A stretch of DNA of 64,000 nt from an uncultured Treponema sp. (GTDB taxonomy: Bacteria; Spirochaetota; Spirochaetia; Treponematales; Treponemataceae): positions 4,459 through 68,458 of the forward strand of contig CALGHP010000065.1 of assembly GCA_937916055.1 (NCBI GenBank). The letters run 5' to 3'. The notes beneath the pieces are model-generated. The model saw nothing but the letters and a program-made list of their open reading frames with translations, made no database searches and was not told the origin of the DNA. A program made the position numbers and the translations under genes. Of this stretch, positions 38,363 to 48,983 are shown in pieces. The first letter of the stretch is position 1. The number at the start of each line of letters is the position of its first letter.

Positions 38363-38455
38363 TGTAGACTCCGGATAAGATGAATTCTCCGCCGCTTAGA
38401 CGGAATCAGCATACAATCTATAACTTTTCTGTAGTTATTGCAAATTCCTCTGCGA

Positions 38456-38483
38456 TTGAAAACATGATGAAAATGGCTATAAT
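38456..38483 (+). promoter_or_regulatory. sigma70-type promoter TTGAAA-16-TATAAT, 7 nt upstream of the queA ATG
   Basis: Hexamers at 38456-38461 and 38478-38483, then GTCACAC-ATG. No SD. Confidence 0.6.
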
Positions 38484-38490
38484 GTCACAC

Positions 38491-39531
38491 ATGCTTACAT
38501 CTGACTTTTATTTTGACCTGCCGCAGGAGCTTGTGGCGCAGCATCCTTCCGGAGTGCGCGGAGAGGACAGGCTGATGCTGCTCGGCCGTTCTTCTGGCGC
38601 CGTCAGTGACTATATGATGGATGATCTTCCGGATCTTGTGGACAGCGGAACACTGATGGTGTTCAACAACTCAAGGGTGAGGCGCGCGCGCGTCTACGGC
38701 ATAAAGGAGACGACCGGAAGACAGACCGAATTCATGTTCCTGAACAGGACGGATCCGCAGGGATATGTATGGAACACGATGGTCAGATCGGCGAAGAAGC
38801 AGAAGCCGGGAATGCGCTATTCGTTTCCGGACGGATCGGTCGGCGTGATAGAGGACGTGCCGGAGAATGCGGACACCGAATTCCGTTCGCTGCGTTTCGG
38901 GCGGCCCGTGGGCGAGGACTGGTTCGAGAGGAACGGACATATTCCGCTTCCGCCCTACATAAAGCGTGAGGACGGCGAGGAGGACAGCGAGCGCTATCAG
39001 AACGTCTATGCGAGGGAGACAGGAAGCGCGGCCTGTCCCACTGCCGGACTCCATTTTACGGACAGTATGCTCGCTCGTCTTGACAGGAAGGGAATCGGCA
39101 GGGCGTTCGTCACTCTCCACGTGGGGCTTGGGACATTTCTTCCCGTCAGGGAGGAGAACATAGAGAATCACCGTATGCACAGCGAGAGCTACACCGTGCC
39201 GGCGGAGACTGCCGAGGCGGTGAACCGAGCAAGGCGGGAGGGAAGGCCTGTCCTTGCGGTAGGTACCACCTCCGTAAGGACGCTTGAGTCGGCGGCTTCG
39301 GATGACGGGACCGTAAGGAGCGGAAGCTCCGACACCCATATATTCATGTATCCTGGCTATGAATTCAAGGTCGTGGATCAGATGTTCACGAATTTCCACA
39401 CGCCTGAAAGCACGCTGATAATGCTTGTCAGCGCGTTCGCCGGCAGGGAGAACATTCTCGGAGCCTACAGGTCCGCCGTAGAGAAGCGGTACCGGTTTTT
39501 CAGCTACGGCGACTGTATGCTGATAAAATAG
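38491..39531 (+). CDS. queA: S-adenosylmethionine:tRNA ribosyltransferase-isomerase
   Basis: N-terminus MLTSDFYFDLPQELVAQHP matches the QueA family N-terminus. C-terminus FFSYGDCMLI. Confidence 0.92.
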   Translation: MLTSDFYFDLPQELVAQHPSGVRGEDRLMLLGRSSGAVSDYMMDDLPDLVDSGTLMVFNNSRVRRARVYGIKETTGRQTEFMFLNRTDPQGYVWNTMVRSAKKQKPGMRYSFPDGSVGVIEDVPENADTEFRSLRFGRPVGEDWFERNGHIPLPPYIKREDGEEDSERYQNVYARETGSAACPTAGLHFTDSMLARLDRKGIGRAFVTLHVGLGTFLPVREENIENHRMHSESYTVPAETAEAVNRARREGRPVLAVGTTSVRTLESAASDDGTVRSGSSDTHIFMYPGYEFKVVDQMFTNFHTPESTLIMLVSAFAGRENILGAYRSAVEKRYRFFSYGDCMLIK

Positions 39532-39534
39532 GAT

Positions 39535-40332
39535 TCAGGTCAGCTGCTCGAACGAATATCTTGTCAGATTGAAGAACTGCTGCCGCACGACGTCGCTTAT
39601 CATCTGGTCCGCGGCGGCCTTCTGGAATTCCGCCTTTACCGCGGACTGTATATCCGATACGCTTTTCTGTGTCAGCGGAATCCTTTTTCCTATAAGGCTG
39701 TTCTCAAGCTCCCTGCTTCTGAACGTGAACGGTCCGGCGAAGGTGAGCCTCACGCTGCTGAGGCTGTTTTTTTCCATTCCGGCAAGAAACGCGAACGACG
39801 CGGACTGGGCGGTTATGCTGTGCTCAGGTCCTATTCTCTTGAATACGGATATGTCCGCATCCGGATACGGAATCCTGACGTTTGAGAGTATGAATCCGTC
39901 CGGAATCCGCATGTTTCCGGAGAAAGGCTCGTAGAGCGTGTCGGACTGGTTCCTGAATTCAAGCCGTGTGTCAAGCGCCATCAGCGGAGCGCACAGCGTC
40001 AGCTTGTGGCCTTCGGCGCAGATGTTTCCTCCGACGGTAGCCATGTTCCTTACGGCCGGATTCGCGATGCTTCTGAGCGCGTCATACAGAACCTGCGGAA
40101 GATGGTTCTGTCCAAGCTCCAGCAGCTGTGAGAGTGTCGTGCCGGCTCCCACGTCAAGATAACGCTCGTGGCGGACTATCTGGGACAGTTCCTTTATTCC
40201 GTGCGTGGAGATTGATTTTTCCGGCAGCTCATGGAGCCTGGTGCATCCTCCTACAATGCGTATGTCCTTTATCGTCTTGAGCTGGTACAGCAGTTCCGTC
40301 ATGTTCTTTGCGAAGAAAACTGATTTTCCCAT
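39535..40332 (-). CDS. FAD-binding subunit of xanthine dehydrogenase/CO dehydrogenase family (CoxM/XdhB-like)
   Basis: RIVGGCTRL...LDVGAGTTLSQL...VRNMATVGGNI pattern of the molybdopterin-dehydrogenase FAD-binding domain. Confidence 0.8.
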   Translation of the reverse strand: MGKSVFFAKNMTELLYQLKTIKDIRIVGGCTRLHELPEKSISTHGIKELSQIVRHERYLDVGAGTTLSQLLELGQNHLPQVLYDALRSIANPAVRNMATVGGNICAEGHKLTLCAPLMALDTRLEFRNQSDTLYEPFSGNMRIPDGFILSNVRIPYPDADISVFKRIGPEHSITAQSASFAFLAGMEKNSLSSVRLTFAGPFTFRSRELENSLIGKRIPLTQKSVSDIQSAVKAEFQKAAADQMISDVVRQQFFNLTRYSFEQLT

Positions 40333-40333
40333 C

Positions 40334-40858
40334 TTATCTGAAATTCTCCTGTGCGCGTGATTTCATGTCATGCCGTTCCTGGAGATGTCTTCCTGTCCTT
40401 CTGCTGTGCACGGCGAGGGCGAACAGAATTCCGGACACAAGCGTCTCCGTGTCCGTGCAGCATGGCGCAAGCTGCCTGACCTGTTCCGTGATTTCCTTTT
40501 TTGATGGAATCCTGTGCATACGGAGGATTTCGCAGGCGGTGAATATCTTGCCGGCATCACAGTAGCCGCACAGCCTTATGCCGGCCCTTGCGAATCCGTC
40601 CGCTATGTCCCTGTATTCGTCCGTTGCGGAAAACGACTCCAGCGTCTCTATCTCGGAATCCCTGACTATGGCCGTGGGAATTCTGCATGATGCGACTGGC
40701 TTTCCGTCAAGAAGAACCATGCAGGAGCCGCAGAACCCCTTGCCGCACCCGCATTTTACGGATATGCAGGAATTCCTTCTTAGGACATCCATGAGCGGCT
40801 CGTCCGGCTGGGCCTCGAAAATCATTTTCTGCCGGTTTAAGGTCACAGGAATCTTCAT
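40334..40858 (-). CDS. [2Fe-2S]-binding subunit of xanthine dehydrogenase family (CoxS-like)
   Basis: First cluster CGCGKGFCGSC...SC. Second cluster region CGYCDAG...CC. Confidence 0.85.
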   Translation of the reverse strand: MKIPVTLNRQKMIFEAQPDEPLMDVLRRNSCISVKCGCGKGFCGSCMVLLDGKPVASCRIPTAIVRDSEIETLESFSATDEYRDIADGFARAGIRLCGYCDAGKIFTACEILRMHRIPSKKEITEQVRQLAPCCTDTETLVSGILFALAVHSRRTGRHLQERHDMKSRAQENFR

Positions 40859-43116
40859 TTTGTCTTGTCTCCCGGTGCCGGATTATCGTCTCCGGTCTCC
40901 CTCTGCTTCATCAGGTTGAATATCTGGGTCTCCGTGCATGGAAGCTCTGTGAGTCTGGTAGCAAGCGCGAGCGACAGGGCCGATGCGAATGCGGCCGGAA
41001 CGGTATTGTGGACAAGGTTGTTCAGCTGTCCGGACCTGTTCTTTGACTGGACGAACATGATGGCGCAGCTGTCGCACGGTACGGTCTTGCCGCTCACAAG
41101 CGCCGTAAGTTCCTGCTGGAGCTCAAGCCTTATTGTCTTTCTCGCCGCCGCCTCGTCCAGAATTTCTCCGCAGTCTATCGTAATCCATATTCCCTTTATC
41201 CGCTCGCTGTATGTGTAGGTGTCAAGCTCTACCTCCACCGCCGCGGATGCGAAAGACATCGTCGTGTACGGTTCTCCGCAGAAATCTCCTTTTTTCCATT
41301 TGCGTGCGGCGGAAGATGAAAGTCCCTTTTTCGCCGTTATGGGAAGCGGCTGGTGGAATCGTTTCCGCTGTATTTCCGCGCAGCATCTTTTCACAAGCTG
41401 GTTCATCACTGCGATGTTGTTGTCGGAGGATTCGGGATATTCGGGCAGCTCGTCTGCGAAGAATTCCGAATCGACCGTTATGTTGTCCTTTCCGATCTGA
41501 AGAGTCTCGGCCGCCGTATTCTTCCATATCTCCTGGACATCGTCCGACGGCCTTGCAGCCTTTATAATCAGCGTCTCGTCGGCCATCAGCGTGATCTCCA
41601 TCTTTCTGTCCGGCGTGAAGACCGTGTCTCCCAGATAGCCAGAAGTGTTGAACGCGCTCGCGATTCCTATTCCTCTGAGCGGAAGCGCGAAGAACGGATT
41701 GCTGTCCTTCATCGTCCTGTTCACGGCATCCATCCTGAACGAGGTGTATTTCCTGTTGAAGTCGCTTGCCCTTATGGTCTCCGATAGCGTCTCTCCGTGC
41801 TTTCCGAGATGGAATGTGAACGGAAAATCATGGTTTCCTGTATCCGCGCTGTTGACCGCCCTGATGTCGTCCGGGAACACATTTGTTTTTCCGCACAGCT
41901 GCTTCATGTGGCTTTCCACTGCGAACAGCGTCTGCGCCTCGGTGTTCTTTACCGATATGGATGTGGGCGGATTCTTTGACTTCCGCGCCGTCGCCCTTAT
42001 GCGCATGTTCTCCGGTCTGTAGTAACCGCAGGCTGTAAGCGCCATCCTGTCCACGAGCTCCTGGGCGAACGGATTTCCGGCTCCGATGTCGATGTCAATC
42101 TTTATGTCCATCGCCCTGATTTTTCCTGACGGAAGGACAGCGGTTCTGTGCGAGATGACCGCAGGCGTGTCCGGAGACAGGTATCTGTCCTCCTCTTTAT
42201 GCGAAAGCATCAGCCGCACCGGTTTCTTTGACAGGAACGAGGCCACCGCGGTCTGAACCGCCAGCATGTCAGTCCTCCATAATCCTCCCTGAAGGTTTCC
42301 TGACGATTTTGTCTTGTGTATGAAAACATTCTCCGTGTCTATGCCTAGAATCTCCGTGATGTTTCTGTGCAGAAGTCCGGTCCATTTTGTGGGGCTGAAC
42401 ACGTGGAGCTGCTTGCCGTCCAGGTAGCAGAATGCGCCTTCGGTCTCCTTCCATTGGGGATTGCTTGTACGCTGCCTCCATTCGCCGGATACGGTCATCA
42501 TGTCTTTGCTGAAAAGCTCCTTCTCCGCCTCCGCGGTGCTTTTCTGCGCATAAAGTCCCGATCTGATTTCCCTTTCGGCCGCCGGAGTCTCCGCGCTGCT
42601 GTCATAGAATTCAGGATCCGCATCAAGCGGCGGCAGGCTGTTTATTTCCGTTATGAATTCGGAGAATTCCGTCCTCTCCTGAGGAAATTCCGGCTGCTCA
42701 GGAGCCATCAGAAGCGGCTTTTTCTGCCGTTCCATGATTCTTTTCAGGGCGGTCTCAAAATTCTCCACATCGAACGATATTTTCACCCTGTCCAGCAGCT
42801 CAAGGACAGTGGCCTTGTCGGGCCCCACGAGAATTCCCAGCGGCTCACCTGTGTATTCCGCCTGTCCGCATCCGAACACAGGCCAGAGCGAGCCTTTTAT
42901 GTCCATGCACTTCGCTCCGGGAATGTCGTCCGCCGTGAAGAGCCTGTATCCGTCCGGAAGATTCTGCGCCTGTATGCCGGTTATTTTTCCTGATGCGGCG
43001 GGACTTCTTACTAGCGCCGCGAAAAGAGTTCCGTCCCTGCCGTAGTCGCTCAGAAAATTCTCGGCGCATAGCGAGCGTTTCTGCCTTTCTCCGGTGATTT
43101 TCCTTTTTCTAGGCAT
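40855..43116 (-). CDS. xanthine dehydrogenase/aldehyde oxidase-family large subunit homolog, apparently divergent in the Moco-binding motifs
   Basis: N-terminal a/b-hammerhead-like region (LFAALVRSPAASGKI...YTGEPLGILVG). Family-like length and order. ATGA overlap with the next gene. See findings for motif divergence. Confidence 0.75.
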   Translation of the reverse strand: MPRKRKITGERQKRSLCAENFLSDYGRDGTLFAALVRSPAASGKITGIQAQNLPDGYRLFTADDIPGAKCMDIKGSLWPVFGCGQAEYTGEPLGILVGPDKATVLELLDRVKISFDVENFETALKRIMERQKKPLLMAPEQPEFPQERTEFSEFITEINSLPPLDADPEFYDSSAETPAAEREIRSGLYAQKSTAEAEKELFSKDMMTVSGEWRQRTSNPQWKETEGAFCYLDGKQLHVFSPTKWTGLLHRNITEILGIDTENVFIHKTKSSGNLQGGLWRTDMLAVQTAVASFLSKKPVRLMLSHKEEDRYLSPDTPAVISHRTAVLPSGKIRAMDIKIDIDIGAGNPFAQELVDRMALTACGYYRPENMRIRATARKSKNPPTSISVKNTEAQTLFAVESHMKQLCGKTNVFPDDIRAVNSADTGNHDFPFTFHLGKHGETLSETIRASDFNRKYTSFRMDAVNRTMKDSNPFFALPLRGIGIASAFNTSGYLGDTVFTPDRKMEITLMADETLIIKAARPSDDVQEIWKNTAAETLQIGKDNITVDSEFFADELPEYPESSDNNIAVMNQLVKRCCAEIQRKRFHQPLPITAKKGLSSSAARKWKKGDFCGEPYTTMSFASAAVEVELDTYTYSERIKGIWITIDCGEILDEAAARKTIRLELQQELTALVSGKTVPCDSCAIMFVQSKNRSGQLNNLVHNTVPAAFASALSLALATRLTELPCTETQIFNLMKQRETGDDNPAPGDKTK

Positions 43117-44353
43117 GGTTTTCCTTTCCTATGCGTGCTACCGTCTCGATCACAAGATCCGAATCGCTGTCCGTCATGTCCGGCCAGATCGGGATTGATA
43201 TTGTCCGTGAATACTGACGCTCCGCGTTCGGAAAATTCTCCGCGGTAAAGTCCGGATAAAGCGCCTTCCAGTAGCTGAAATGGAAGAGCGGAATGAAATG
43301 CACGGAAATCCCGATTCCTGCCTGCTGGAGCTTTCCGGCGAATTCCTGCCTTGAGATGCGCAGCTTTTCAGGCACGAGCCTCAGAAGATACAGATGCCAT
43401 GAATTTCCCTGTCCGTCGGGCGGCAGGCTGACAAAATCCATACCGGAGAAGGCCCTGTTGTATTTTTCGGCGGTGGCTTTTCTTCTGCTGTGGAAGCGCT
43501 CCGCACGCTCAAGCTGGCAGATTCCGATTGCCGAGAGGATGTCGGGCAGATTGAATTTGTAGCCCGGAGCCACGATGTCATATTCCCATGACGCGCGAGG
43601 AGACGTGTATCTGTCCCAGGTCGTTCTGTCCATTCCGTGCATCCGCATTGTCTCCATGCGGCGCGCCAGCTCCGGATTTCTTGTGCAGACCATTCCGCCT
43701 TCGGCAGTTGTGATTGTCTTTGTCGCGTAGAATGAGAATACCCCTGCGTCTCCGACTGTTCCCGCATATCCCAGGGAAGTCGGGGAGGGAAACGCGTGGG
43801 CGGCATCCTCAATGACCGCCGCCCCGTGTTTTTTCGCGGCGGCGCAGATTCTGTCCATCCGGCAGACGTTTCCTCCGACATGCACAGGAACTACGGCCGC
43901 GATTTTGTGTCCGGTGTCATTGCTGAGAATTCTTTCTATGCTGCCGGGATCTATGCTGTAGCTGTCCTTTTCTATGTCGGCGAAAACCACGTCCGCTCCC
44001 AGATGGCGGGCGCAGGCTGCCGTCGATACAAAGGTGTATGGTGTCGTCAGCACTGATTTTCCGGGGCCGACACCGCAGGCTTCCATCGCGAGCAGCATTC
44101 CGCTGGTGTTGCTGTTTACGGCAAGGCTTTTGACAGGCGCGTCCGTCAGACCGATGGATTTTCTTGCCGTCCTCACGGATTCTGTCGCGCCTCCGTCCTT
44201 CTCGGTCACCGCCTCGGAGAATTTCCTTTCAAATTCAAGCGTCCTCTTGCCTGTCGTGAGCCATCCTGAGCGGAGGACGTCAAGAACGGCATTCTCCTCA
44301 GCCTCTGTTATTGATGCCCTGTGGAAGGGAACTCTGATTTTATCTTCTGCCAT
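43109..44353 (-). CDS. DegT/DnrJ/EryC1/StrS-family (PglE/PseC-like) nucleotide-sugar aminotransferase
   Basis: VPFHRASITEAEENAVLDVLRSGWLTTG N-terminus and FSFYATKTITTAEGG PLP-Lys region. ATG at 44353, with GGAG 7 nt upstream. Confidence 0.88.
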   Translation of the reverse strand: MAEDKIRVPFHRASITEAEENAVLDVLRSGWLTTGKRTLEFERKFSEAVTEKDGGATESVRTARKSIGLTDAPVKSLAVNSNTSGMLLAMEACGVGPGKSVLTTPYTFVSTAACARHLGADVVFADIEKDSYSIDPGSIERILSNDTGHKIAAVVPVHVGGNVCRMDRICAAAKKHGAAVIEDAAHAFPSPTSLGYAGTVGDAGVFSFYATKTITTAEGGMVCTRNPELARRMETMRMHGMDRTTWDRYTSPRASWEYDIVAPGYKFNLPDILSAIGICQLERAERFHSRRKATAEKYNRAFSGMDFVSLPPDGQGNSWHLYLLRLVPEKLRISRQEFAGKLQQAGIGISVHFIPLFHFSYWKALYPDFTAENFPNAERQYSRTISIPIWPDMTDSDSDLVIETVARIGKENHA

Positions 44354-44382
44354 AAAATGCTCCGTAAAAACACATTTATCTG

Positions 44383-45903
44383 TCACAGCAGGTCGGTTCT
44401 CTGCTGCCCGTCATTTCCGCACAGACCGTAGAATTCCTCCAGCGAGGGAAATTCCCTACGCAGAACAGCCAGAAGATGGTTCTTGTTGCGGTAAAAGTCT
44501 TCCTTTCCTGCAACGGATCTGCATACAGGCTCAAGCTCGGAGAGAATTCCTCCGAGCTTCTCGGCCGCGACGGGATGATTCTCAAGGCGGAGAATTTTCG
44601 GATATTCGGTCGGCACGGGATGTTCTGATTCCAGCCATAGCGGTTCGGTAAGTCTTTCACCTTTTCTCGCCCCGACAATCTTTATGTCGATGTCGCGGTA
44701 AGGTTCAAGACCACTGAATTTTATAATCTGCTCGGCAAGCTCAAGAATATTCAGCGGCTCTCCCATGTCAAGAAGGTAGGATGCTCCGTTTTTCCCCATG
44801 CCCCCGGTCTGAAGCACAAGCGAGCAGGCTTCCGGAATCGTCATGAAGAAACGCTCCATCCGTCTGTCCGTCACGGTCACCGGACCTCCGTTCTTTATCT
44901 GCTCCATGAAAAGCGGCAGGATGGAGCCTCTTGAGCCGAGAACATTCCCGAACCTGACGAACATTATCGCCTGATTTCCGTGCGCTTTTGCGGCGGCATC
45001 CAGAACGAGCTTCTCGCACAGCAGCTTGGACACTCCATATACAGATACCGGGCTTACCGCCTTGTCCGTTGAGATCAGTACGAAACGCTCCGTTCCGTGC
45101 CTCACGGCCGCATCAAGCAGATTCTTTGTTCCGAACACGTTGTTCTCAACCGCCGCGACCGGATTCTCCTCCATCATCGGAACATGCTTATATGCTGCGC
45201 AGTGGAATATGACATCGCATCTTGTTTTTTCTATTATGTAGTCCGTGTAGCTGCGGTCCTTCATGTCCCCGATTATCGGGACGATGGAGGCTTTCTCGCC
45301 GACCCCCTCAGCCTGGAGAACCCGCAGCTCCCGGAATATTCCGCAGATTGAATTCTCGCCGTGCCCGAACAGATACAGCCGTTCCGCGCCGCCGGAAAGA
45401 AGCTGTCTCGCAAGCTCCGATCCGATCGAGCCTCCGGCGCCGGTTATGAGGACACGCTTTCCGCGCAGATATGACAGGCTTTCCTTTAGGGGAATCGTAA
45501 TCTGCGTGCGGCCGAGAATATCAAGCGGATCAATTTCCCTTGCCTGTACAAAATGTGCGGTTCCGTCTATGACCTGGCTTATTCCCGGAAGTATTTTTAT
45601 ATGGGAGAACCTGTTCTTCCTGAGCACGTCGTAGATTTCCCTTATGCGTTCGACCGGAGCGCTTGGTATCGCGATTATCGCCTCGTCCGTCTCGGAATTC
45701 CTCAGAATGTTGGCGATGTTGTCTATCGGTCCCAGCACCGGAATTCCGTCCGCCTCCGTGCCTATAAGCGACTTGTCGTCGTCAAGAAACGCGGCGACCC
45801 TGCCGAACACTTTCTTCCTTTTTATGTCATCGGCTATCGTCTGTCCGGCGAATCCTGCTCCTATGATGTAGACATTCTTTTCCATAATAAGGCCGTTTTC
45901 CAT
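44383..45903 (-). CDS. CapD/PglF-like nucleotide-sugar 4,6-dehydratase (soluble form, no N-terminal TM segments)
   Basis: Rossmann VLITGAGGSIGSEL. YGVSK catalytic Tyr-x3-Lys. Extra N-terminal Rossmann-like domain (VYIIGAGFAG). Confidence 0.88.
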   Translation of the reverse strand: MENGLIMEKNVYIIGAGFAGQTIADDIKRKKVFGRVAAFLDDDKSLIGTEADGIPVLGPIDNIANILRNSETDEAIIAIPSAPVERIREIYDVLRKNRFSHIKILPGISQVIDGTAHFVQAREIDPLDILGRTQITIPLKESLSYLRGKRVLITGAGGSIGSELARQLLSGGAERLYLFGHGENSICGIFRELRVLQAEGVGEKASIVPIIGDMKDRSYTDYIIEKTRCDVIFHCAAYKHVPMMEENPVAAVENNVFGTKNLLDAAVRHGTERFVLISTDKAVSPVSVYGVSKLLCEKLVLDAAAKAHGNQAIMFVRFGNVLGSRGSILPLFMEQIKNGGPVTVTDRRMERFFMTIPEACSLVLQTGGMGKNGASYLLDMGEPLNILELAEQIIKFSGLEPYRDIDIKIVGARKGERLTEPLWLESEHPVPTEYPKILRLENHPVAAEKLGGILSELEPVCRSVAGKEDFYRNKNHLLAVLRREFPSLEEFYGLCGNDGQQRTDLL

Positions 45904-45910
45904 ATTCAAG

Positions 45911-46441
45911 TTATTTTTCCGGGATTTTCTCTATTTCCTCATAGGACAGATCGACTGTCATGTCGGAGTCCTGGAACGTGAAGCGGATTTTTACGCGTCT
46001 CTTGCGCCTGTCCACTTTTATTATGTTTCCCTCAAGTCCGTGCAGCGGCCCGGACGCTATTCTTATCCTGTTGTTCTCGTCGAACGAGGCTTTTGATACA
46101 TCCATCACTGATCCGAATTCAAGAAAATGACCGAGGAGGGCAAGGTCACGTCCCGAAATCTCCTCCCGCTCCAGATTGTTCGGAAGAAAACGCTGGAAAT
46201 ATTTGAGCCGGCTTATCATTCCGCACAGACAGTCTCCCATCCTTTCCTGGAACTCAAAAAACACATATCCGGGAAACACAGGCTGAAGCTCGCACATTGT
46301 CTTTCCCTGCCTCCGGATTATCATTTTCCGCTGGAGATAGATTGTCCTTCCCGCTATGTCCTGCATCCTGACAAGCTCATCTGCAAGCTGCGAGAATTTC
46401 TGCTCGTTGCGCGAGCTTATCTGTGCGGCATAATAAAACAT
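45911..46441 (-). CDS. specialised NusG paralog (RfaH/UpxY/LoaP-like transcription antiterminator)
   Basis: NGN-like start MFYYAAQISSRNEQK and C-terminal KOW (GPLHGLEGNIIKVDRRKRRVKIRF). First gene of a polysaccharide-type operon. ATG at 46441 (the listed 46477 is TTG). Confidence 0.7.
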   Translation of the reverse strand: MFYYAAQISSRNEQKFSQLADELVRMQDIAGRTIYLQRKMIIRRQGKTMCELQPVFPGYVFFEFQERMGDCLCGMISRLKYFQRFLPNNLEREEISGRDLALLGHFLEFGSVMDVSKASFDENNRIRIASGPLHGLEGNIIKVDRRKRRVKIRFTFQDSDMTVDLSYEEIEKIPEK

Positions 46442-46545
46442 GAGAAAGACTTTACCATAGAAGCGGATTTTCTTCAATCTTGAAAAAAAATACTTCTAAA
46501 CAAGTGCATTTCAGACTCCGATTATCAAACAAAAGGTGGAAACTG

Positions 46546-47076
46546 ATGGGGAAAACAAGATTTGTGCTGCTTTTCATGCTGCTATGTGCAGTCTGTCCGG
46601 CAAGCCAGATTTCTTTTCAGGTCGTGCAGCATGACGAGTCCGCGGGCGGAAAGGTCGGCGAGCAGAGTCTTCTTGTGGAGGACGGGCTTCTGACCGGATT
46701 CTTTGACAGCGGATTCATCGTCACGAATTCTCCGGCTGCCGTGTCATCTTCGGCGGCTCAGGATGAGAGCCTGTGGAAAATCGGATTTGATGATGCCGCT
46801 GACGGCTGTTCGGATTATTTTGTCCAGGTCAGGCTTTACTTCAGACCGGATCAGGATTCCGCCGGAAAAACATCTCCGGTTCTGAATGACATAGAATATT
46901 CCGTCGTCTCGGTCGCAACGGGCAGACGGACTTCCGGAAAATCCGCCGTAGAACCGGAGTATGAGCGCCTTCTCCGCAAAAAGAACCGGAATTCCTCCGG
47001 AGACGGGCTTTTTGCCGGACTGGTGGCTGATATAAAAAAAGCGATAAAAAGAAACCCTAAGGATGGTCAGATATGA
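46546..47076 (+). CDS. secreted hypothetical protein
   Basis: ATG at 46546 with AGGTGG upstream. Signal peptide FVLLFMLLCAVCPASQ. ATGA overlap with the next gene. Confidence 0.55.
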   Translation: MGKTRFVLLFMLLCAVCPASQISFQVVQHDESAGGKVGEQSLLVEDGLLTGFFDSGFIVTNSPAAVSSSAAQDESLWKIGFDDAADGCSDYFVQVRLYFRPDQDSAGKTSPVLNDIEYSVVSVATGRRTSGKSAVEPEYERLLRKKNRNSSGDGLFAGLVADIKKAIKRNPKDGQI

Positions 47077-48983
47077 TACATAAGAGAATGAGAGAAATTT
47101 CGAGGCTTTTTGCCGTCGTCCTGTGCGGCCTTGTGTTCGCGTCTTTCAGCACTTCGCTGGACGGAAGGGCTGTTGTCGTCGAGGACGGCGTTTTTCCGCA
47201 GGGACTTTTCGCGAAGGCTGTAGGTTATCTGCCTGGAGACGTGCTCAGCGTTACAGGAATTTCCGGCAGCAGCACTGCCGATCTTCTTGTGATCGGCGCG
47301 CTTGATCCTTCCGAGGGCGTTGCGATCATGCTTTCTCCGGAAGCCGCCGCCGCGCTCGGCATGGACAGGGATTCAAATAATATTGTGAAGATAACGAAAC
47401 GCTCCAGTCAGGACGGCCGTGTGTACGGTTCGGCAATGCTTGCGAAGCCGGCTGGTACGGAGCCGGACACATCCGCGGAGCAGGACGGCGACGGACAGAA
47501 TGCGGCTGACGAGGGCGGAACGGACATAATTGACGATGACATTGAGGAGAGGGATGCTTTCGCCGGTGAAAATCTGCCTGAGGAGGCCGAGCGGTCCGCA
47601 GCAGAGGACGACTCTCCTGAGGCTGAGCCGGATTCTGCTGAAACCGACTCAGATGCGGATGACGGTGGCACGGAGACGGCGGCAAATGAAAGCCCGGAGG
47701 CGGAGGCCGGCGAGAACGGTTCTGGTGCTGAGGAATATGTTCCAGCGGAGGAGGAGCCTGTTCCTGCCGTTCCGGAGGATAGCGCGCCTTCTTACGAGGA
47801 GACGGAGCCTCCAAGCGAGGAGGAATTTGTTCCTGATGATGACCTTGCCGTGCAGCCGTCCGAAGCCGCGCCGGAATCCTGCGAAGAGGAGGAGGCTCCT
47901 GCCAACGAGGCTGTGGTTCCTGACCAGGATTTCTACAGCGGGGATTCCGCTCCCGAACAGGAGATTCCTCCGGAGGAGCAGGCCGCGGAGCCTGACGAGA
48001 GTCCGCTTGTCTCCGAGTCGGTGGAGGCGGATGTCTTTGATGACGGAGACGGCGCGGAGAATTCAGTTGAAACAGAAGCCCCGGCGGATGACGAGCCGGT
48101 CACGGAAGATGAGATTCCGGATGACGGCGAGCTGCCGGCTGAGGAACTGGTCGCTCCCGAACCTTTCGATGAGCATGATGATGCGGTTCAGGAGCCTTGC
48201 GGCGAGGAGCCTGACATGACGCCGGAGCCAGAGCCGGACACTGAGGATATTCCGGCTTCCGAGCCATACGACGAGATTGAGCCTGAGCCTGTGGATGACG
48301 AGCTTCCTGCGGCGGAACCAGAGCCGGAGGATGACATTCCGGAAGAATCCGTTCCGGAGCCTGCGGAGGAAATTCCTGCTGTCCGGGACGAGACTCCGGC
48401 CGGGGATTCCGGGGAGACAGCCGCAGAGGAGACCGGTGTCATGCCGGAGGATGAGACTGTGGCGGAGGAAGACGTTTCCGGCGGTGATGATGACGGCGTT
48501 GAGGATGCGGTTGAATTTGACGAGACTTATGATGCGATAATCCTTGTTCCTGCTGCGGACAATCCGCCTGAACCGGCTTTGAATCCGGAGGTCACAACGG
48601 ATGGCGCGGATTCGGAGGCTTCCGGGGATGTCGCTGTCACGGAGGAAAGTCTGGAGCCTGATGCGGAAGCTTCTGCCTCGGACGGTGATTCCGGCGGCGG
48701 AATTCAGGATGGACCGGCTTACGGAAAATATCTTGTTCCGTCGCTCGGTGAACTCAGCCGCGGCTCATATTATATTCAGATCGCCGTTCTGAAGGATGAG
48801 CTGAACATAATGGGCATAATAGAGAAATACAGCGGAAATTATCCGATGGCGGTCGTCCCGCTTTCGTCCGGGGCAGCCCTTCAGGTTATGGTCGGGCCGC
48901 TTTCGATGGACGAGTATGGCGCGGTTCTTGAGCGTTTCAGAAGCTACGGATTCAAGGACGCATTCCTCAGGAAAATAAAATAA
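47073..48983 (+). CDS. SPOR-domain protein with RlpA-like N-terminal region and a ~400-aa acidic (D/E/P) linker
   Basis: C-terminal SPOR (YYIQIAVLKDELN...VMVGPLSMDEYGAVLERFRSYGFKDAFLRK). The N-terminal LPGDVLSVT...AIMLSPEAAAALG resembles the RlpA double-psi barrel. Confidence 0.75.
   Translation: MIHKRMREISRLFAVVLCGLVFASFSTSLDGRAVVVEDGVFPQGLFAKAVGYLPGDVLSVTGISGSSTADLLVIGALDPSEGVAIMLSPEAAAALGMDRDSNNIVKITKRSSQDGRVYGSAMLAKPAGTEPDTSAEQDGDGQNAADEGGTDIIDDDIEERDAFAGENLPEEAERSAAEDDSPEAEPDSAETDSDADDGGTETAANESPEAEAGENGSGAEEYVPAEEEPVPAVPEDSAPSYEETEPPSEEEFVPDDDLAVQPSEAAPESCEEEEAPANEAVVPDQDFYSGDSAPEQEIPPEEQAAEPDESPLVSESVEADVFDDGDGAENSVETEAPADDEPVTEDEIPDDGELPAEELVAPEPFDEHDDAVQEPCGEEPDMTPEPEPDTEDIPASEPYDEIEPEPVDDELPAAEPEPEDDIPEESVPEPAEEIPAVRDETPAGDSGETAAEETGVMPEDETVAEEDVSGGDDDGVEDAVEFDETYDAIILVPAADNPPEPALNPEVTTDGADSEASGDVAVTEESLEPDAEASASDGDSGGGIQDGPAYGKYLVPSLGELSRGSYYIQIAVLKDELNIMGIIEKYSGNYPMAVVPLSSGAALQVMVGPLSMDEYGAVLERFRSYGFKDAFLRKIK

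Follow-up and report, generated by a model that had tools for sequence, protein, structure and literature searches.

A conserved spirochete operon with CapD/DegT sugar enzymes and a xanthine dehydrogenase-like trimer that lacks the canonical molybdenum-site signature

A 4,6-dehydratase and an aminotransferase make up the first two steps of pathways of the pseudaminic-acid or bacillosamine type. In PseB/PseC of Helicobacter pylori and Campylobacter jejuni, and in PglF/PglE of C. jejuni, these are an SDR 4,6-dehydratase and then a DegT-family aminotransferase, and the same succession is found in an operon of an uncultured Treponema sp., in the 64,000-nucleotide stretch of contig CALGHP010000065.1 analyzed here and called the window. 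The described pathways go on with the acetyltransferase PseH/PglD and with PseG, PseI, and PseF, whereas the window operon has none of these and carries genes for a xanthine dehydrogenase (XDH)-like trimer in their place. A mechanistic precedent, and only that, is the deoxygenation of 6-deoxyhexoses at C-3 by E1/E3 (AscC/AscD, RfbH/RfbI) and at C-4 by DesI/DesII. There too a 4,6-dehydratase product, a DegT-family PLP/PMP enzyme, and an FAD/[2Fe-2S] or Fe-S redox partner come together, so that there is chemical precedent for passing electrons from Fe-S and flavin centers to nucleotide-sugar intermediates, but the redox partner in the window has the XDH fold and is neither an FNR-type E3 nor a radical-SAM DesII.

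The trimer itself is most like the Mo-hydroxylase heterotrimers of the XDH/AOR/CO dehydrogenase family, such as bovine XO, D. gigas AOR, T. aromatica 4-hydroxybenzoyl-CoA reductase, and E. coli PaoABC. The likeness extends to the full-length fold of the large subunit (TM ~0.71), to the three-gene L-S-M order, and to a small subunit with two [2Fe-2S] motifs and a medium subunit with FAD_binding_5. It stops at the active site, since the whole spirochete family is without the GGGFGGK loop and Arg912, and the clade of the window has also lost Ser-Arg and, for the most part, Gln767 and the catalytic Glu1261, both of which the window protein lacks. The second Fe-S motif is 'CC' and not 'CxC', and the genes sit in a nucleotide-sugar operon, not a catabolic one. 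The trio also appears in the literature on T. pallidum, where TPASS_0079 and TPASS_0081 have been listed as XDH-like (PMC4403809). The original prediction held that an XDH-type trimer is an undescribed partner for a dehydratase/aminotransferase pair, and a full-text literature search likewise found no description of one.

Operon layout and transcript control

Six genes packed almost without gaps had been predicted, and reading the sequence alongside the ORF list finds all six on the minus strand at the coordinates given for them, with every junction in place; their domain assignments also hold in profile searches. The first encodes a LoaP-type NusG paralog (45911..46441, 176 aa), whose TAA stop at 45913-45911 is followed after 7 nt by the ATG at 45903 of the gene for a soluble CapD/PglF-like UDP-HexNAc 4,6-dehydratase (44383..45903, 506 aa). 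The TGA of the latter (44385-44383) is separated by a 29-nt gap containing GGAG from the ATG at 44353 of the gene for a DegT-family PLP-dependent nucleotide-sugar 4-aminotransferase of the PseC/ArnB-like kind (43109..44353, 414 aa). That gene overlaps by 8 nt (43109/43116) the gene for the large subunit, XdhL, of XDH/aldehyde-oxidoreductase fold (40855..43116, 753 aa). An ATGA overlap (40855/40858) joins XdhL to the small subunit with its two [2Fe-2S] cluster motifs (40334..40858, 174 aa), and a 1-nt gap (40334/40332) separates this from the FAD-binding medium subunit (39535..40332, 265 aa). Convergent queA (38380-39531, plus strand) bounds the operon on one side and a divergent gene pair (46546..48983, plus strand) on the other. 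Between that pair and the operon lies a divergent intergenic region of ~104 nt (46442..46545) which, judged by its position, presumably holds the promoter(s) and a short operon leader; it has no Rfam family match.

The mechanical ORF list extends three of the genes to upstream TTG/GTG codons (46477, 45909, and 44386; that of the NusG paralog is TTG 46477), but the evidence favors the ATG starts. Alignments with the LoaP model and with the orthologs begin at residue 13 of the longer frame, which is ATG 46441, and the 506 aa and 414 aa of CapD and DegT match the 505 and 413 aa of the T. bryantii genes. Because well over 100 independent loci share the gene order and the overlaps, the packing is far beyond chance, and the operon of six genes is real and tightly packed.

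LoaP has been reported in Spirochaetota, and the leaders of its targets carry a recruitment hairpin with a UNCG tetraloop and a terminator enhanced by NusA (PMC12691694). The window paralog scores 115.4 bits to the NCBIfam LoaP model NF033641 over model positions 1-166, against a cutoff of 125, with 50 bits to housekeeping NusG and 44 to UpxY, and the RfaH model is not reported at E ≤ 0.001. Its counterparts leading the operon in loci L089, L090, and L091 pass the cutoff at 136-150 bits and are 38-42% identical to it over the full length. By these profile scores the window protein is clearly closer to LoaP than to the other NusG subfamilies. The gene has an omega of 0.094 against its counterpart in L006.

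The LoaP-controlled dfn/mln operons of B. velezensis (PMC12691694) likewise have a LoaP-type NusG paralog at a biosynthetic locus. The window differs in that its loaP opens a short operon of ~7 kb, in whose leader neither a UNCG hairpin nor a NusA-type terminator was detected, and in that many relatives have lost loaP and kept the operon. The L006 leader also has no UNCG hairpin; a UUCG hairpin occurs in L091 only and is not conserved. Terminator-like sites show no clear excess (17, where 9.2 ± 3.2 would be expected), with none in the leader. Most close relatives, in the T. bryantii-like clade, have the same cassette without LoaP; the gene is ancestral to the operon and was lost in that clade. 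The original prediction took the specialized NusG paralog at the 5' end as a sign of an antitermination-dependent transcript. With relatives that lack LoaP, no leader hairpin of the UNCG type, and no clear excess of terminator-like sites, such dependence is plausible but unproven, and it is not obligatory. LoaP, where present, would promote read-through of the operon's own transcript.

The sugar enzymes

CapD matches Pfam Polysacc_synt_2 with 355.7 bits, and among experimental structures it comes closest to that of C. jejuni PglF/WlaL (5bju/5bjy, 231-235 bits). It has the linker and catalytic domains of PglF, as an N-terminal Rossmann-like linker domain and an SDR catalytic domain, but no membrane domain was detected, which makes it a soluble version. 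A set of 121 homologs conserves the motifs GAGGSIGSEL and STDK...YG.SK, and in these motifs the GxGGxIG NAD site and the Thr-Asp-Lys / Tyr-x3-Lys catalytic residues are recognizable. Identity is ~75% across rumen Treponema and ~60-70% in the deep spirochete lineages. DegT matches Pfam DegT_DnrJ_EryC1 with 332.6 bits. Its top NCBIfam model is PseC, at 328.6 bits and below the cutoff of 423.5, followed by ArnB at 277.6, and its nearest PDB entries are ArnB 1mdo (238 bits) and H. pylori PseC 2fn6 (124 bits). CapD likewise falls below its equivalog cutoffs (PseB 166/408, FnlA 153/730, NCBIfam), so the pair differs from PseB/PseC in missing both, and the dehydratase may be of either the retaining or the inverting kind.

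In an E1-type dehydrase, His replaces the Schiff-base Lys and a [2Fe-2S] Cys motif is present, and the enzyme works with an FNR-type reductase. The window DegT is not of that type. It keeps the Lys, within 'ATKTIT.AEGG', and at least 97% of 127 homologs share this residue; it has no Fe-S Cys motif, only a single conserved Cys (C175). Going by their motifs, both enzymes appear catalytically intact, and their type predicts conversion of UDP-HexNAc to a UDP-4-keto-6-deoxy sugar and then to UDP-4-amino-4,6-dideoxy-HexNAc. The operon and the window at ~29-58 kb contain no PseH/PseG/PseI/PseF or Leg equivalents. A NeuB/PseI-family synthase does occur 1.4 kb from a stand-alone trio of XDH-like genes, only in L093.

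The XDH-like trimer

XdhL has weak Pfam matches (MoCoBD_1 86.6 bits, MoCoBD_2 36.3, hammerhead 28.7). The AF2 model has pLDDT 83.7 and pTM 0.84, and Foldseek aligns it to 1sij, 3etr_C, 1rm6, and 1jro_B with TM 0.70-0.72 and E = 3e-41, at 14-18% identity to D. gigas AOR, bovine XO, and 4-HBCR. The model thus predicts the overall fold of an XDH large subunit, with a hammerhead and two Mo-cofactor-binding domains. The family is specific to Spirochaetia: all matches above 480 bits are from that class, and the scores then drop to 380 bits or less.

The original prediction labeled the trimer 'molybdo', and this label is not supported by the large subunit, from which the canonical Mo-cofactor and active-site residues are missing. 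Of the two elements that bind the Mo cofactor, the GGGFGGK loop is absent from all 172 family members, and the equivalent of bovine R912 is found in 0 of 172 against 8 of 8 canonical sequences; at these sites the window protein reads 'SGNLQGGL' and 'SVKNTEAQ'. The position of the bovine active-site Gln767 holds K in the window and K40/R37/Q9 in the Treponema clade, and that of the catalytic Glu1261 holds N in the window and E29/G29/D8 in the clade. The clade of the window has also lost the Ser-Arg motif, and its XdhL has a deletion of ~22 residues. In the deep lineages Q is found in 84 of 84, E or D in 83 of 84, and Ser-Arg is kept at the Mo-site, and since these residues are retained some deep-lineage members may still bind a pterin cofactor. 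With the canonical residues lost, a Mo-hydroxylase reaction is unlikely in the clade of the window.

The other two subunits look different. The small one matches Pfam Fer2 and Fer2_2 (35.9/35.6 bits), with C38, C43, C46, C58, C97, C100, and C134 invariant in 90 of 90 homologs and C133 present in 84 of 90. The medium one matches FAD_binding_5 at 85.7 bits, and its 'ATVGGNI', which fits the (A/T)(I/V)GGN motif, is near-invariant in 88 homologs. The predicted XDH-fold heterotrimer keeps its FAD site and both [2Fe-2S] clusters. This conservation bears on whether the trimer is a catalytically inert pseudo-enzyme, a structural scaffold or redox-sensing regulatory partner by which the dehydratase and aminotransferase, or other machinery for glycans, would be organized or gated while the trimer leaves the sugar itself unchanged. 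Such a role would account for the loss of essentially all canonical catalytic and Mo-site residues in the clade of the window, for the deletion there, and for the much higher rate at which XdhL evolves compared with the sugar enzymes (identities of 25-50% and 60-75%, respectively). Eight conserved Fe-S cysteines and an FAD motif are, however, hard to explain without electron transfer, XdhL omega (0.03-0.17) is as low as that of queA, and where the old site was there are conserved family-specific motifs, e.g., HKTK...GLWR, SDFxRK, and KKRFxxPLPI, which argue for a remodeled rather than an empty site. We consider the inert role unlikely. The remodeled trimer would instead be a Mo-independent, or non-canonical, enzyme passing electrons from FAD through one [2Fe-2S] cluster to the other.

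Gene order across spirochetes and the proposed role

In 73 of 77 Treponema-type loci the trio is immediately preceded by CapD-DegT. In the deep spirochete lineages the full LoaP-CapD-DegT set is present in 31 of 47 loci and at least one of the three in 9 more, and in the remaining 7 the trio is alone, with no sugar gene within 3.3-8 kb. The comparison with relatives thus bears out the predicted neighborhood in most loci, but not its constancy, because besides the 7 solitary trios L094, L155, L160, L162, and L173 are without DegT and L045 is without CapD; the partnership is frequent but not obligatory at the locus level. The cassette is kept despite differing flanks in L086, L088, and L089-L091. 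The FeS and FAD genes follow XdhL in 114 of the 115 loci with enough flank. The 8-nt overlap of DegT with XdhL recurs in 43 of 87 loci, with a spacing of 30 nt or less in 82 of 87, and the FeS gene overlaps XdhL by 4 nt in 57 of 87; on this spacing the sugar/redox junction appears to be translationally coupled. All operon genes are under purifying selection, with omega values of 0.01-0.17, comparable to queA.

The conservation could in part be plain core-genome synteny, since the housekeeping neighbors queA, RsmI-like, and RlpA-like are also syntenic. It is in this light that one might regard the trio as an independent oxidoreductase of an aldehyde, a purine, or an N-heterocycle that stays beside the sugar genes merely by conserved synteny, as the solitary trios of the deep lineages and of L093 and the public annotation 'xanthine dehydrogenase family protein' would suggest. 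We find this very improbable. The Mo and active-site signature is missing, all equivalog models score far under cutoff on XdhL (e.g., 87 bits where the Se-dependent XDH model requires 830), and coupling of XdhL to DegT is as tight as coupling inside the trimer. LoaP directly heads the trio even without CapD/DegT, in L145 and L146, and no purine, aldehyde, or Mo-cofactor genes occur in any flank annotated among the compared loci, so the trio was never seen there among the catabolic genes that would have made its place beside the sugar pair accidental. No sugar genes were found near the nearest outgroup of the large-subunit family. From these comparisons the adjacency of the trio and CapD-DegT does not appear fortuitous; the linkage is supported, and the 'molybdo' chemistry is doubtful.

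The explanation we prefer, to which we give roughly even credence as a whole, is that the six genes are an ancient operon, specific to Spirochaetia, which acts as a single functional module. CapD and then DegT would supply UDP-4-amino-4,6-dideoxy-HexNAc, and the remodeled XdhL would bind this nucleotide sugar, or a group on its 4-amino position, for a redox tailoring step by the trimer. The product would go into a core spirochete glycoconjugate, most likely a pseudaminic-acid-type O-glycan of the FlaB flagellins. The trimer probably makes an undescribed redox step toward a core surface or flagellar sugar; we infer the surface or flagellar glycan as destination, and the nonulosonic-acid and flagellar link is suggested by PseC as the top model for DegT and by the synthase near the trio in L093.

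A module whose nucleotide amino-sugar goes into something other than the flagella, such as a glycolipid of the envelope, a capsule-like polysaccharide, or a glycan associated with the cell wall, with the trimer as the redox step there, seems to us improbable. The window, surveyed at ~29-58 kb, has no glycosyltransferase, flippase, or polymerase genes, and the cassette belongs to the core in a single copy, in T. pallidum as well, consistent with a conserved and essential glycan, e.g., a FlaB modification. Set against this are the ArnB similarity of DegT, ArnB being an enzyme of a lipid-A-modifying pathway, the L094 operon, downstream of which lie genes for a UDP-sugar dehydrogenase, an epimerase, an ABC transporter, and Wzi, and the classical control of polysaccharide or secondary-metabolite operons by LoaP and other NusG paralogs (PMC12691694). 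The divergent pair speaks on the same side, being an RlpA-like SPOR-domain gene and a small signal-peptide-like gene conserved upstream, although its membership in the system is uncertain. The small gene encodes a protein of ~176 aa from ATG 46546 with a signal-peptide-like N-terminus, and the other a 636-aa acidic protein. Neither window copy has a Pfam match. Most of the Treponema-type and deep-lineage loci have homologs of the pair in divergent orientation ahead of the operon, and those of the 636-aa protein end in a SPOR domain, scoring 25.9 and 23.7 bits, with a weak DPBB match, in L091 and L089.

Operon structure and conservation of the cassette

The original prediction of six minus-strand genes at 39535-46441 is borne out by the ORF list and the sequence, with junctions that agree base for base. 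The LoaP-type gene (45911-46441) stops with TAA at 45913-45911 and is followed after 7 nt by the ATG of CapD at 45903. CapD (44383-45903) stops with TGA at 44385-44383, and 29 nt containing GGAG precede the ATG of DegT at 44353. DegT (43109-44353) overlaps XdhL (40855-43116) by 8 nt, XdhL has an ATGA overlap with the FeS gene (40334-40858), and in the ORF list a 1-nt gap separates that from the FAD gene (39535-40332). ATG 46441, residue 13 of the longer ORF, is the likely start of gene 1, because the model and ortholog alignments both begin there.

The operon is self-contained, with the end of convergent queA 3 nt from the FAD gene stop and a divergent gene pair beginning about 104 nt upstream. 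Both genes of the pair are on the plus strand. The first (46546-47076) encodes a small protein whose N-terminus resembles a signal peptide, and the second (47073-48983) a 636-aa protein whose middle is a very long, D/E/P-rich, acidic tract of low complexity; homologs of the 636-aa protein have a C-terminal SPOR domain and a weak DPBB (RlpA-like) N-terminus. This pair (46546-48983) keeps its divergent position upstream of the operon in lineages ranging from rumen Treponema to Rectinemataceae-like spirochaetes. The 30 kb around the operon has ordinary core-genome content, including FeoB, an ABC-F protein, MCP, LacI, ClpB, a GH95 hydrolase, RsmB and an HD-GYP protein, and holds no glycosyltransferase, acetyltransferase, purine-catabolic or Mo-related gene. 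A promoter and terminator scan gives consensus-level matches only and is uninformative. The downstream TP_methylase was considered as a pathway member and set aside as a diverged RsmI-like rRNA methyltransferase, probably a housekeeping neighbor.

Every window protein is mapped onto 174 homologous loci, with layout counts limited to loci having enough upstream flank. Genome scans and contig look-ups supplied 94 of the loci (one of them, L092, a non-spirochaete outgroup), and a metagenome scan supplied the other 80. The organism is a Treponema-like spirochaete. The closest relatives of XdhL are about 50% identical and come from T. bryantii and from Treponema MAGs of rumen or gut origin, the exception being one 96%-identical mis-binned contig. 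The expected linkage of the trio (XdhL, FeS and FAD) to the sugar pair holds widely: CapD-DegT, with or without LoaP, lies upstream of the trio in 73 of 77 Treponema-type loci, and the full LoaP-CapD-DegT set does so in 31 of 47 deep-lineage loci from Rectinemataceae-like, environmental and termite-gut spirochaetes. The rest of the deep-lineage loci have LoaP-CapD (5), LoaP alone (2), inverted LoaP-CapD (1), CapD-DegT with an insertion (1), or no sugar gene (7). FeS and FAD genes follow XdhL in 114 of 115 loci, and the cassette is kept despite different flanking genes in L086, L088 and L089-L091. Over 87 loci, the coupling of DegT to XdhL (8-nt overlap in 43) is as tight as that of XdhL to FeS (4-nt overlap in 57).

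Had the trio been found elsewhere with purine or aldehyde catabolic genes, the adjacency could have been fortuitous. That arrangement is not observed, since the annotated flanks contain no such genes, including those of the stand-alone trio L157, where the neighbors are signal peptidases, a HemN-like radical SAM protein, SpoIIE/STAS, AraC and sugar ABC permeases. Outside the spirochaetes, the closest relative is a deltaproteobacterial protein with L and FeS fused, and its neighborhood lacks sugar genes. On the other side, queA, the RsmI-like methyltransferase and the RlpA-like SPOR-domain gene are likewise syntenic, so the whole region belongs to the stable core genome, and functional linkage is somewhat exaggerated when judged by synteny alone. 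With the junctions and the flanks both in view, we consider it very improbable that the trio is an unrelated oxidoreductase.

Several loci deserve separate mention. L006 (CAVBEH010000007.1), L036 and L080 carry a Treponema-type cassette under the labels "Bacteroidaceae bacterium", "Anaerobutyricum sp." and "Anaerovoracaceae bacterium", L006 having 83-99% identity to the window over ten genes; all three appear to be spirochaete contigs wrongly binned into MAGs. Apparent decay in L087 is an artefact of N-run scaffold gaps. Genes for an S26 signal peptidase and a HemN-like radical-SAM protein recur beside a trio or XdhL detached from CapD (L069 6168-8047; L157 2178-5183), and in L069 XdhL is retained with DegT and is followed by neither an FeS nor a FAD gene.

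The LoaP-type NusG paralog

Gene 1 is best classed as a LoaP-type NusG paralog: it scores 115 bits against the LoaP model, slightly below its cutoff of 125, and only 50 against housekeeping NusG. The gene is missing from 80 related loci, and among the first 85 it is seen only in the window's species, a distribution that raised the idea of a recent insertion. That idea is ruled out by orthologs leading the same operon in deep lineages, with 38-42% full-length identity and 136-150 bits on the LoaP model. Given these orthologs, LoaP was part of the ancestral module, and the T. bryantii-like clade has lost it. Two loci (L145 and L146) have the trio directly after LoaP with neither CapD nor DegT.

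LoaP occurs in Bacillota, Actinomycetota and Spirochaetota, is recruited by a UNCG-tetraloop leader hairpin, and antagonises NusA at intrinsic terminators (PMC12691694). A UNCG-type hairpin is found neither in the 104-nt leader of the window nor conserved across loci, the search for an Rfam element gives nothing convincing, and a terminator scan shows no clear excess. One long transcript dependent on antitermination had been proposed for the operon. Antitermination by LoaP remains plausible, and the obligatory part of the proposal falls, the T. bryantii-like clade having lost LoaP and kept the operon.

Sugar enzymes and an XDH-fold trimer with an eroded Mo site

Gene 2 encodes a soluble PglF/CapD-like SDR 4,6-dehydratase, scoring 356 bits to Polysacc_synt_2 and 231-235 bits to C. 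jejuni PglF structures. Gene 3 encodes a DegT-family aminotransferase with top models PseC (329 bits, under the equivalog cutoff of 423) and ArnB. CapD and DegT both look competent, because the NAD site and Thr-Asp-Lys/Tyr-Lys residues of the one and the PLP lysine of the other are conserved in 121-127 homologs. CapD has a Tyr within STDKAV..VYGVSK (residues ~289-296), where wild-type PglF has Met. The top-scoring PDB entry for CapD, slightly above 5bju, is PglF (WlaL) 5bjy, which has Tyr at the same position, and CapD may be closer in mechanism to PseB/CapE-type dehydratases. In L045 (Treponema sp. JC4), CapD is absent at 1687-1815, leaving a 128-nt gap between the divergent small gene and DegT. 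The sister genome, L044 (Treponema sp. C6A8), does carry CapD, and the gap in L045 reflects either a genuine relocation or loss, or a fault of the assembly.

Genes 4-6 match the large, [2Fe-2S] and FAD subunits of the XDH family weakly, all equivalog models being 5-10-fold under cutoff. The AF2 model of XdhL, from a 64-sequence alignment, has pLDDT 83.7 and pTM 0.84 and superposes over its full length, with TM of about 0.70-0.72 and 14-18% identity, on four Mo-hydroxylase structures: D. gigas aldehyde oxidoreductase, bovine xanthine oxidase, 4-hydroxybenzoyl-CoA reductase and R. capsulatus XDH. On this modeling, the XDH fold of the large subunit is secure. The family is sharply bounded, with all matches over 480 bits from Spirochaetia and the next best at or below 380 bits; a library of 1.84 billion proteins yields 328 clusters at 50% identity with E < 1e-30. 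An acidic, length-variable insertion between the hammerhead and the first cofactor-binding domain (XdhL residues ~131-175, pLDDT < 50) is missing from the deep-lineage proteins of ~690 aa.

The Mo site is where the family departs from its relatives. Positions are set, in bovine numbering, against eight canonical XDH/CODH/PaoC-type sequences for 84 deep-lineage and 88 Treponema-type proteins. The GGGFGGK loop, found in 7 of the 8 canonical sequences and partly aligned in the other, is absent from both sets and reads SGNLQGGL in the window; Arg912, canonical in 8/8, occurs in none of either set and is V in the window. GQG (4/8 canonical, with G-x-G in 8/8) is variable in deep lineages and deleted in Treponema-type proteins, the window included. 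Gln767 (7/8 canonical) is kept in 84/84 deep-lineage proteins and is K in 40, R in 37 and Q in 9 of the Treponema type, and K in the window. The Ser-Arg at 1078-80 (SR in 5/8 canonical) has both residues in 84/84 deep-lineage proteins and is lost in the Treponema type and in the window. Glu1261 (8/8 canonical) is E in 49 and D in 34 of the deep set, E in 29, G in 29 and D in 8 of the Treponema type, and N in the window. Treponema-type XdhL also lacks a stretch of about 22 residues that both the canonical and the deep-lineage proteins have. Hence the "molybdo" chemistry first supposed for the trimer does not fit the window protein, which lacks the GGGFGGK loop, Arg912, Gln767 and Glu1261.

The other cofactor sites are kept. 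The FeS subunit has seven cysteines in 90/90 sequences and an eighth in 84/90, and the FAD subunit keeps its TVGGN motif. The second [2Fe-2S] motif is C-x2-C...C-C, with adjacent cysteines at residues 133-134, in 84/90 family members, unlike the C-x2-C...C-x-C of canonical XDH small subunits. Over 12 close pairs, dN/dS is 0.01-0.17 for every gene, the same range as for queA; the XdhL values of 0.03-0.17 rule out a decaying relic, and family-specific motifs such as HKTK..GLWR, SDFxRK and KKRFxxPLPI are conserved at the former Mo site. The simplest reading of these sequences is that the trimer is a selected, functional Fe-S flavoprotein with a large subunit that is no longer a canonical Mo hydroxylase. 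The deep-lineage members may retain a pterin. The same eroded site could belong to a non-catalytic scaffold or sensor, a role that, beside the retained FAD and Fe-S ligands, we rate as unlikely.

The components are known folds and families. What is new is that a LoaP/dehydratase/aminotransferase set is coupled to an XDH-fold trimer, in an arrangement both conserved and specific to Spirochaetia, and that the Mo signature has been lost under selection. The graded loss of Mo-site residues within a conserved operon, partial in deep lineages and near complete in Treponema, offers molybdoenzyme specialists a natural experiment in the re-purposing of a cofactor-dependent scaffold.

A proposed redox step and its possible glycan target

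The pieces in place are an intact dehydratase and transaminase, intact ligands for FAD and for 2x[2Fe-2S], a Mo site that has eroded, translationally coupled genes and purifying selection. The CapD/DegT pair would make UDP-4-amino-4,6-dideoxy-HexNAc, and the trimer would conduct electrons via FAD and two clusters to or from a re-modelled large-subunit pocket acting either on that sugar or on a group carried by its amino nitrogen. We regard this composite model, the sugar pair with a redox step of the trimer on its product, as evenly poised. The E1/E3 and DesI/DesII systems offer chemical precedent for DegT-type enzymes that work with an Fe-S or flavin partner. An E1/E3-like PMP dehydrase system was considered, and membership in these systems fails because DegT retains its Lys and has no Fe-S motif, and because their reductase fold differs from the XDH-fold trimer here.

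Pointing indirectly to a nonulosonic-acid target are the PseC top model of DegT and one Treponematales MAG, where a NeuB/PseI-family nonulosonic-acid synthase is encoded 1.4 kb from a stand-alone trio. The FlaB flagellins of Treponema are modified with an L-glycero-L-manno-nonulosonic (pseudaminic-type) acid bearing an unusual 2-methoxy-4,5,6-trihydroxyhexanoyl group, a glycan essential to both filament assembly and motility (PMC13439194, PMC9481697). The literature that we reached does not explain how the acyl-nonulosonic acid is made, and the operon is a concrete candidate, genetically testable in T. denticola, whose FlaB1-3 carry a 450.2-Da glycan; generating or installing the 2-methoxy-4,5,6-trihydroxyhexanoyl N-acyl group could be an instance of the novel redox step. 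An envelope or polysaccharide glycan is a live alternative destination of low probability, favored by the RlpA-like neighbor gene, by polysaccharide genes past the operon in L094, and by the ArnB-like affinity of DegT. The most specific version of the flagellar proposal is a still longer shot: that the trimer is a Mo-independent XDH-scaffold enzyme whose novel FAD/2x[2Fe-2S] step on UDP-4-amino-4,6-dideoxy-HexNAc would be indispensable to flagellar filament assembly in all Treponema, T. pallidum among them.

No paper was found describing the LoaP/CapD/DegT/XDH-like cassette or its function, and its genes are present in public genomes with generic annotation. The XDH matches of a sheep-faeces metaproteome paper are from Firmicutes and irrelevant to the trio. 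Should the proposal hold, the module would constitute a branch of nucleotide-sugar biosynthesis specific to Spirochaetia, and its trimer would be the first XDH-fold Fe-S flavoprotein that we know of to have given up the Mo site while remaining strongly selected. In T. pallidum, the genes TP0077, TP0078 and TP0080 are annotated as Cap5D, SpsC and quinoline 2-oxidoreductase, which would reproduce the five-gene cassette there. TPASS_0079 and TPASS_0081 are given as XDH-like "hypothetical proteins" in the minimal genome of T. pallidum SS14 (PMC4403809), and the proposed module would provide a function for both in the syphilis agent. After the FAD gene, deep lineages have a diverged RsmI-like TP_methylase gene, often with overlap, together with a PilZN3-domain gene (L089 12399-13975; L091 12359-13909; many of L097-L148), and a PilZ protein, TPASS_0086, is encoded a few genes past the XDH-like genes of T. 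pallidum (PMC4403809).
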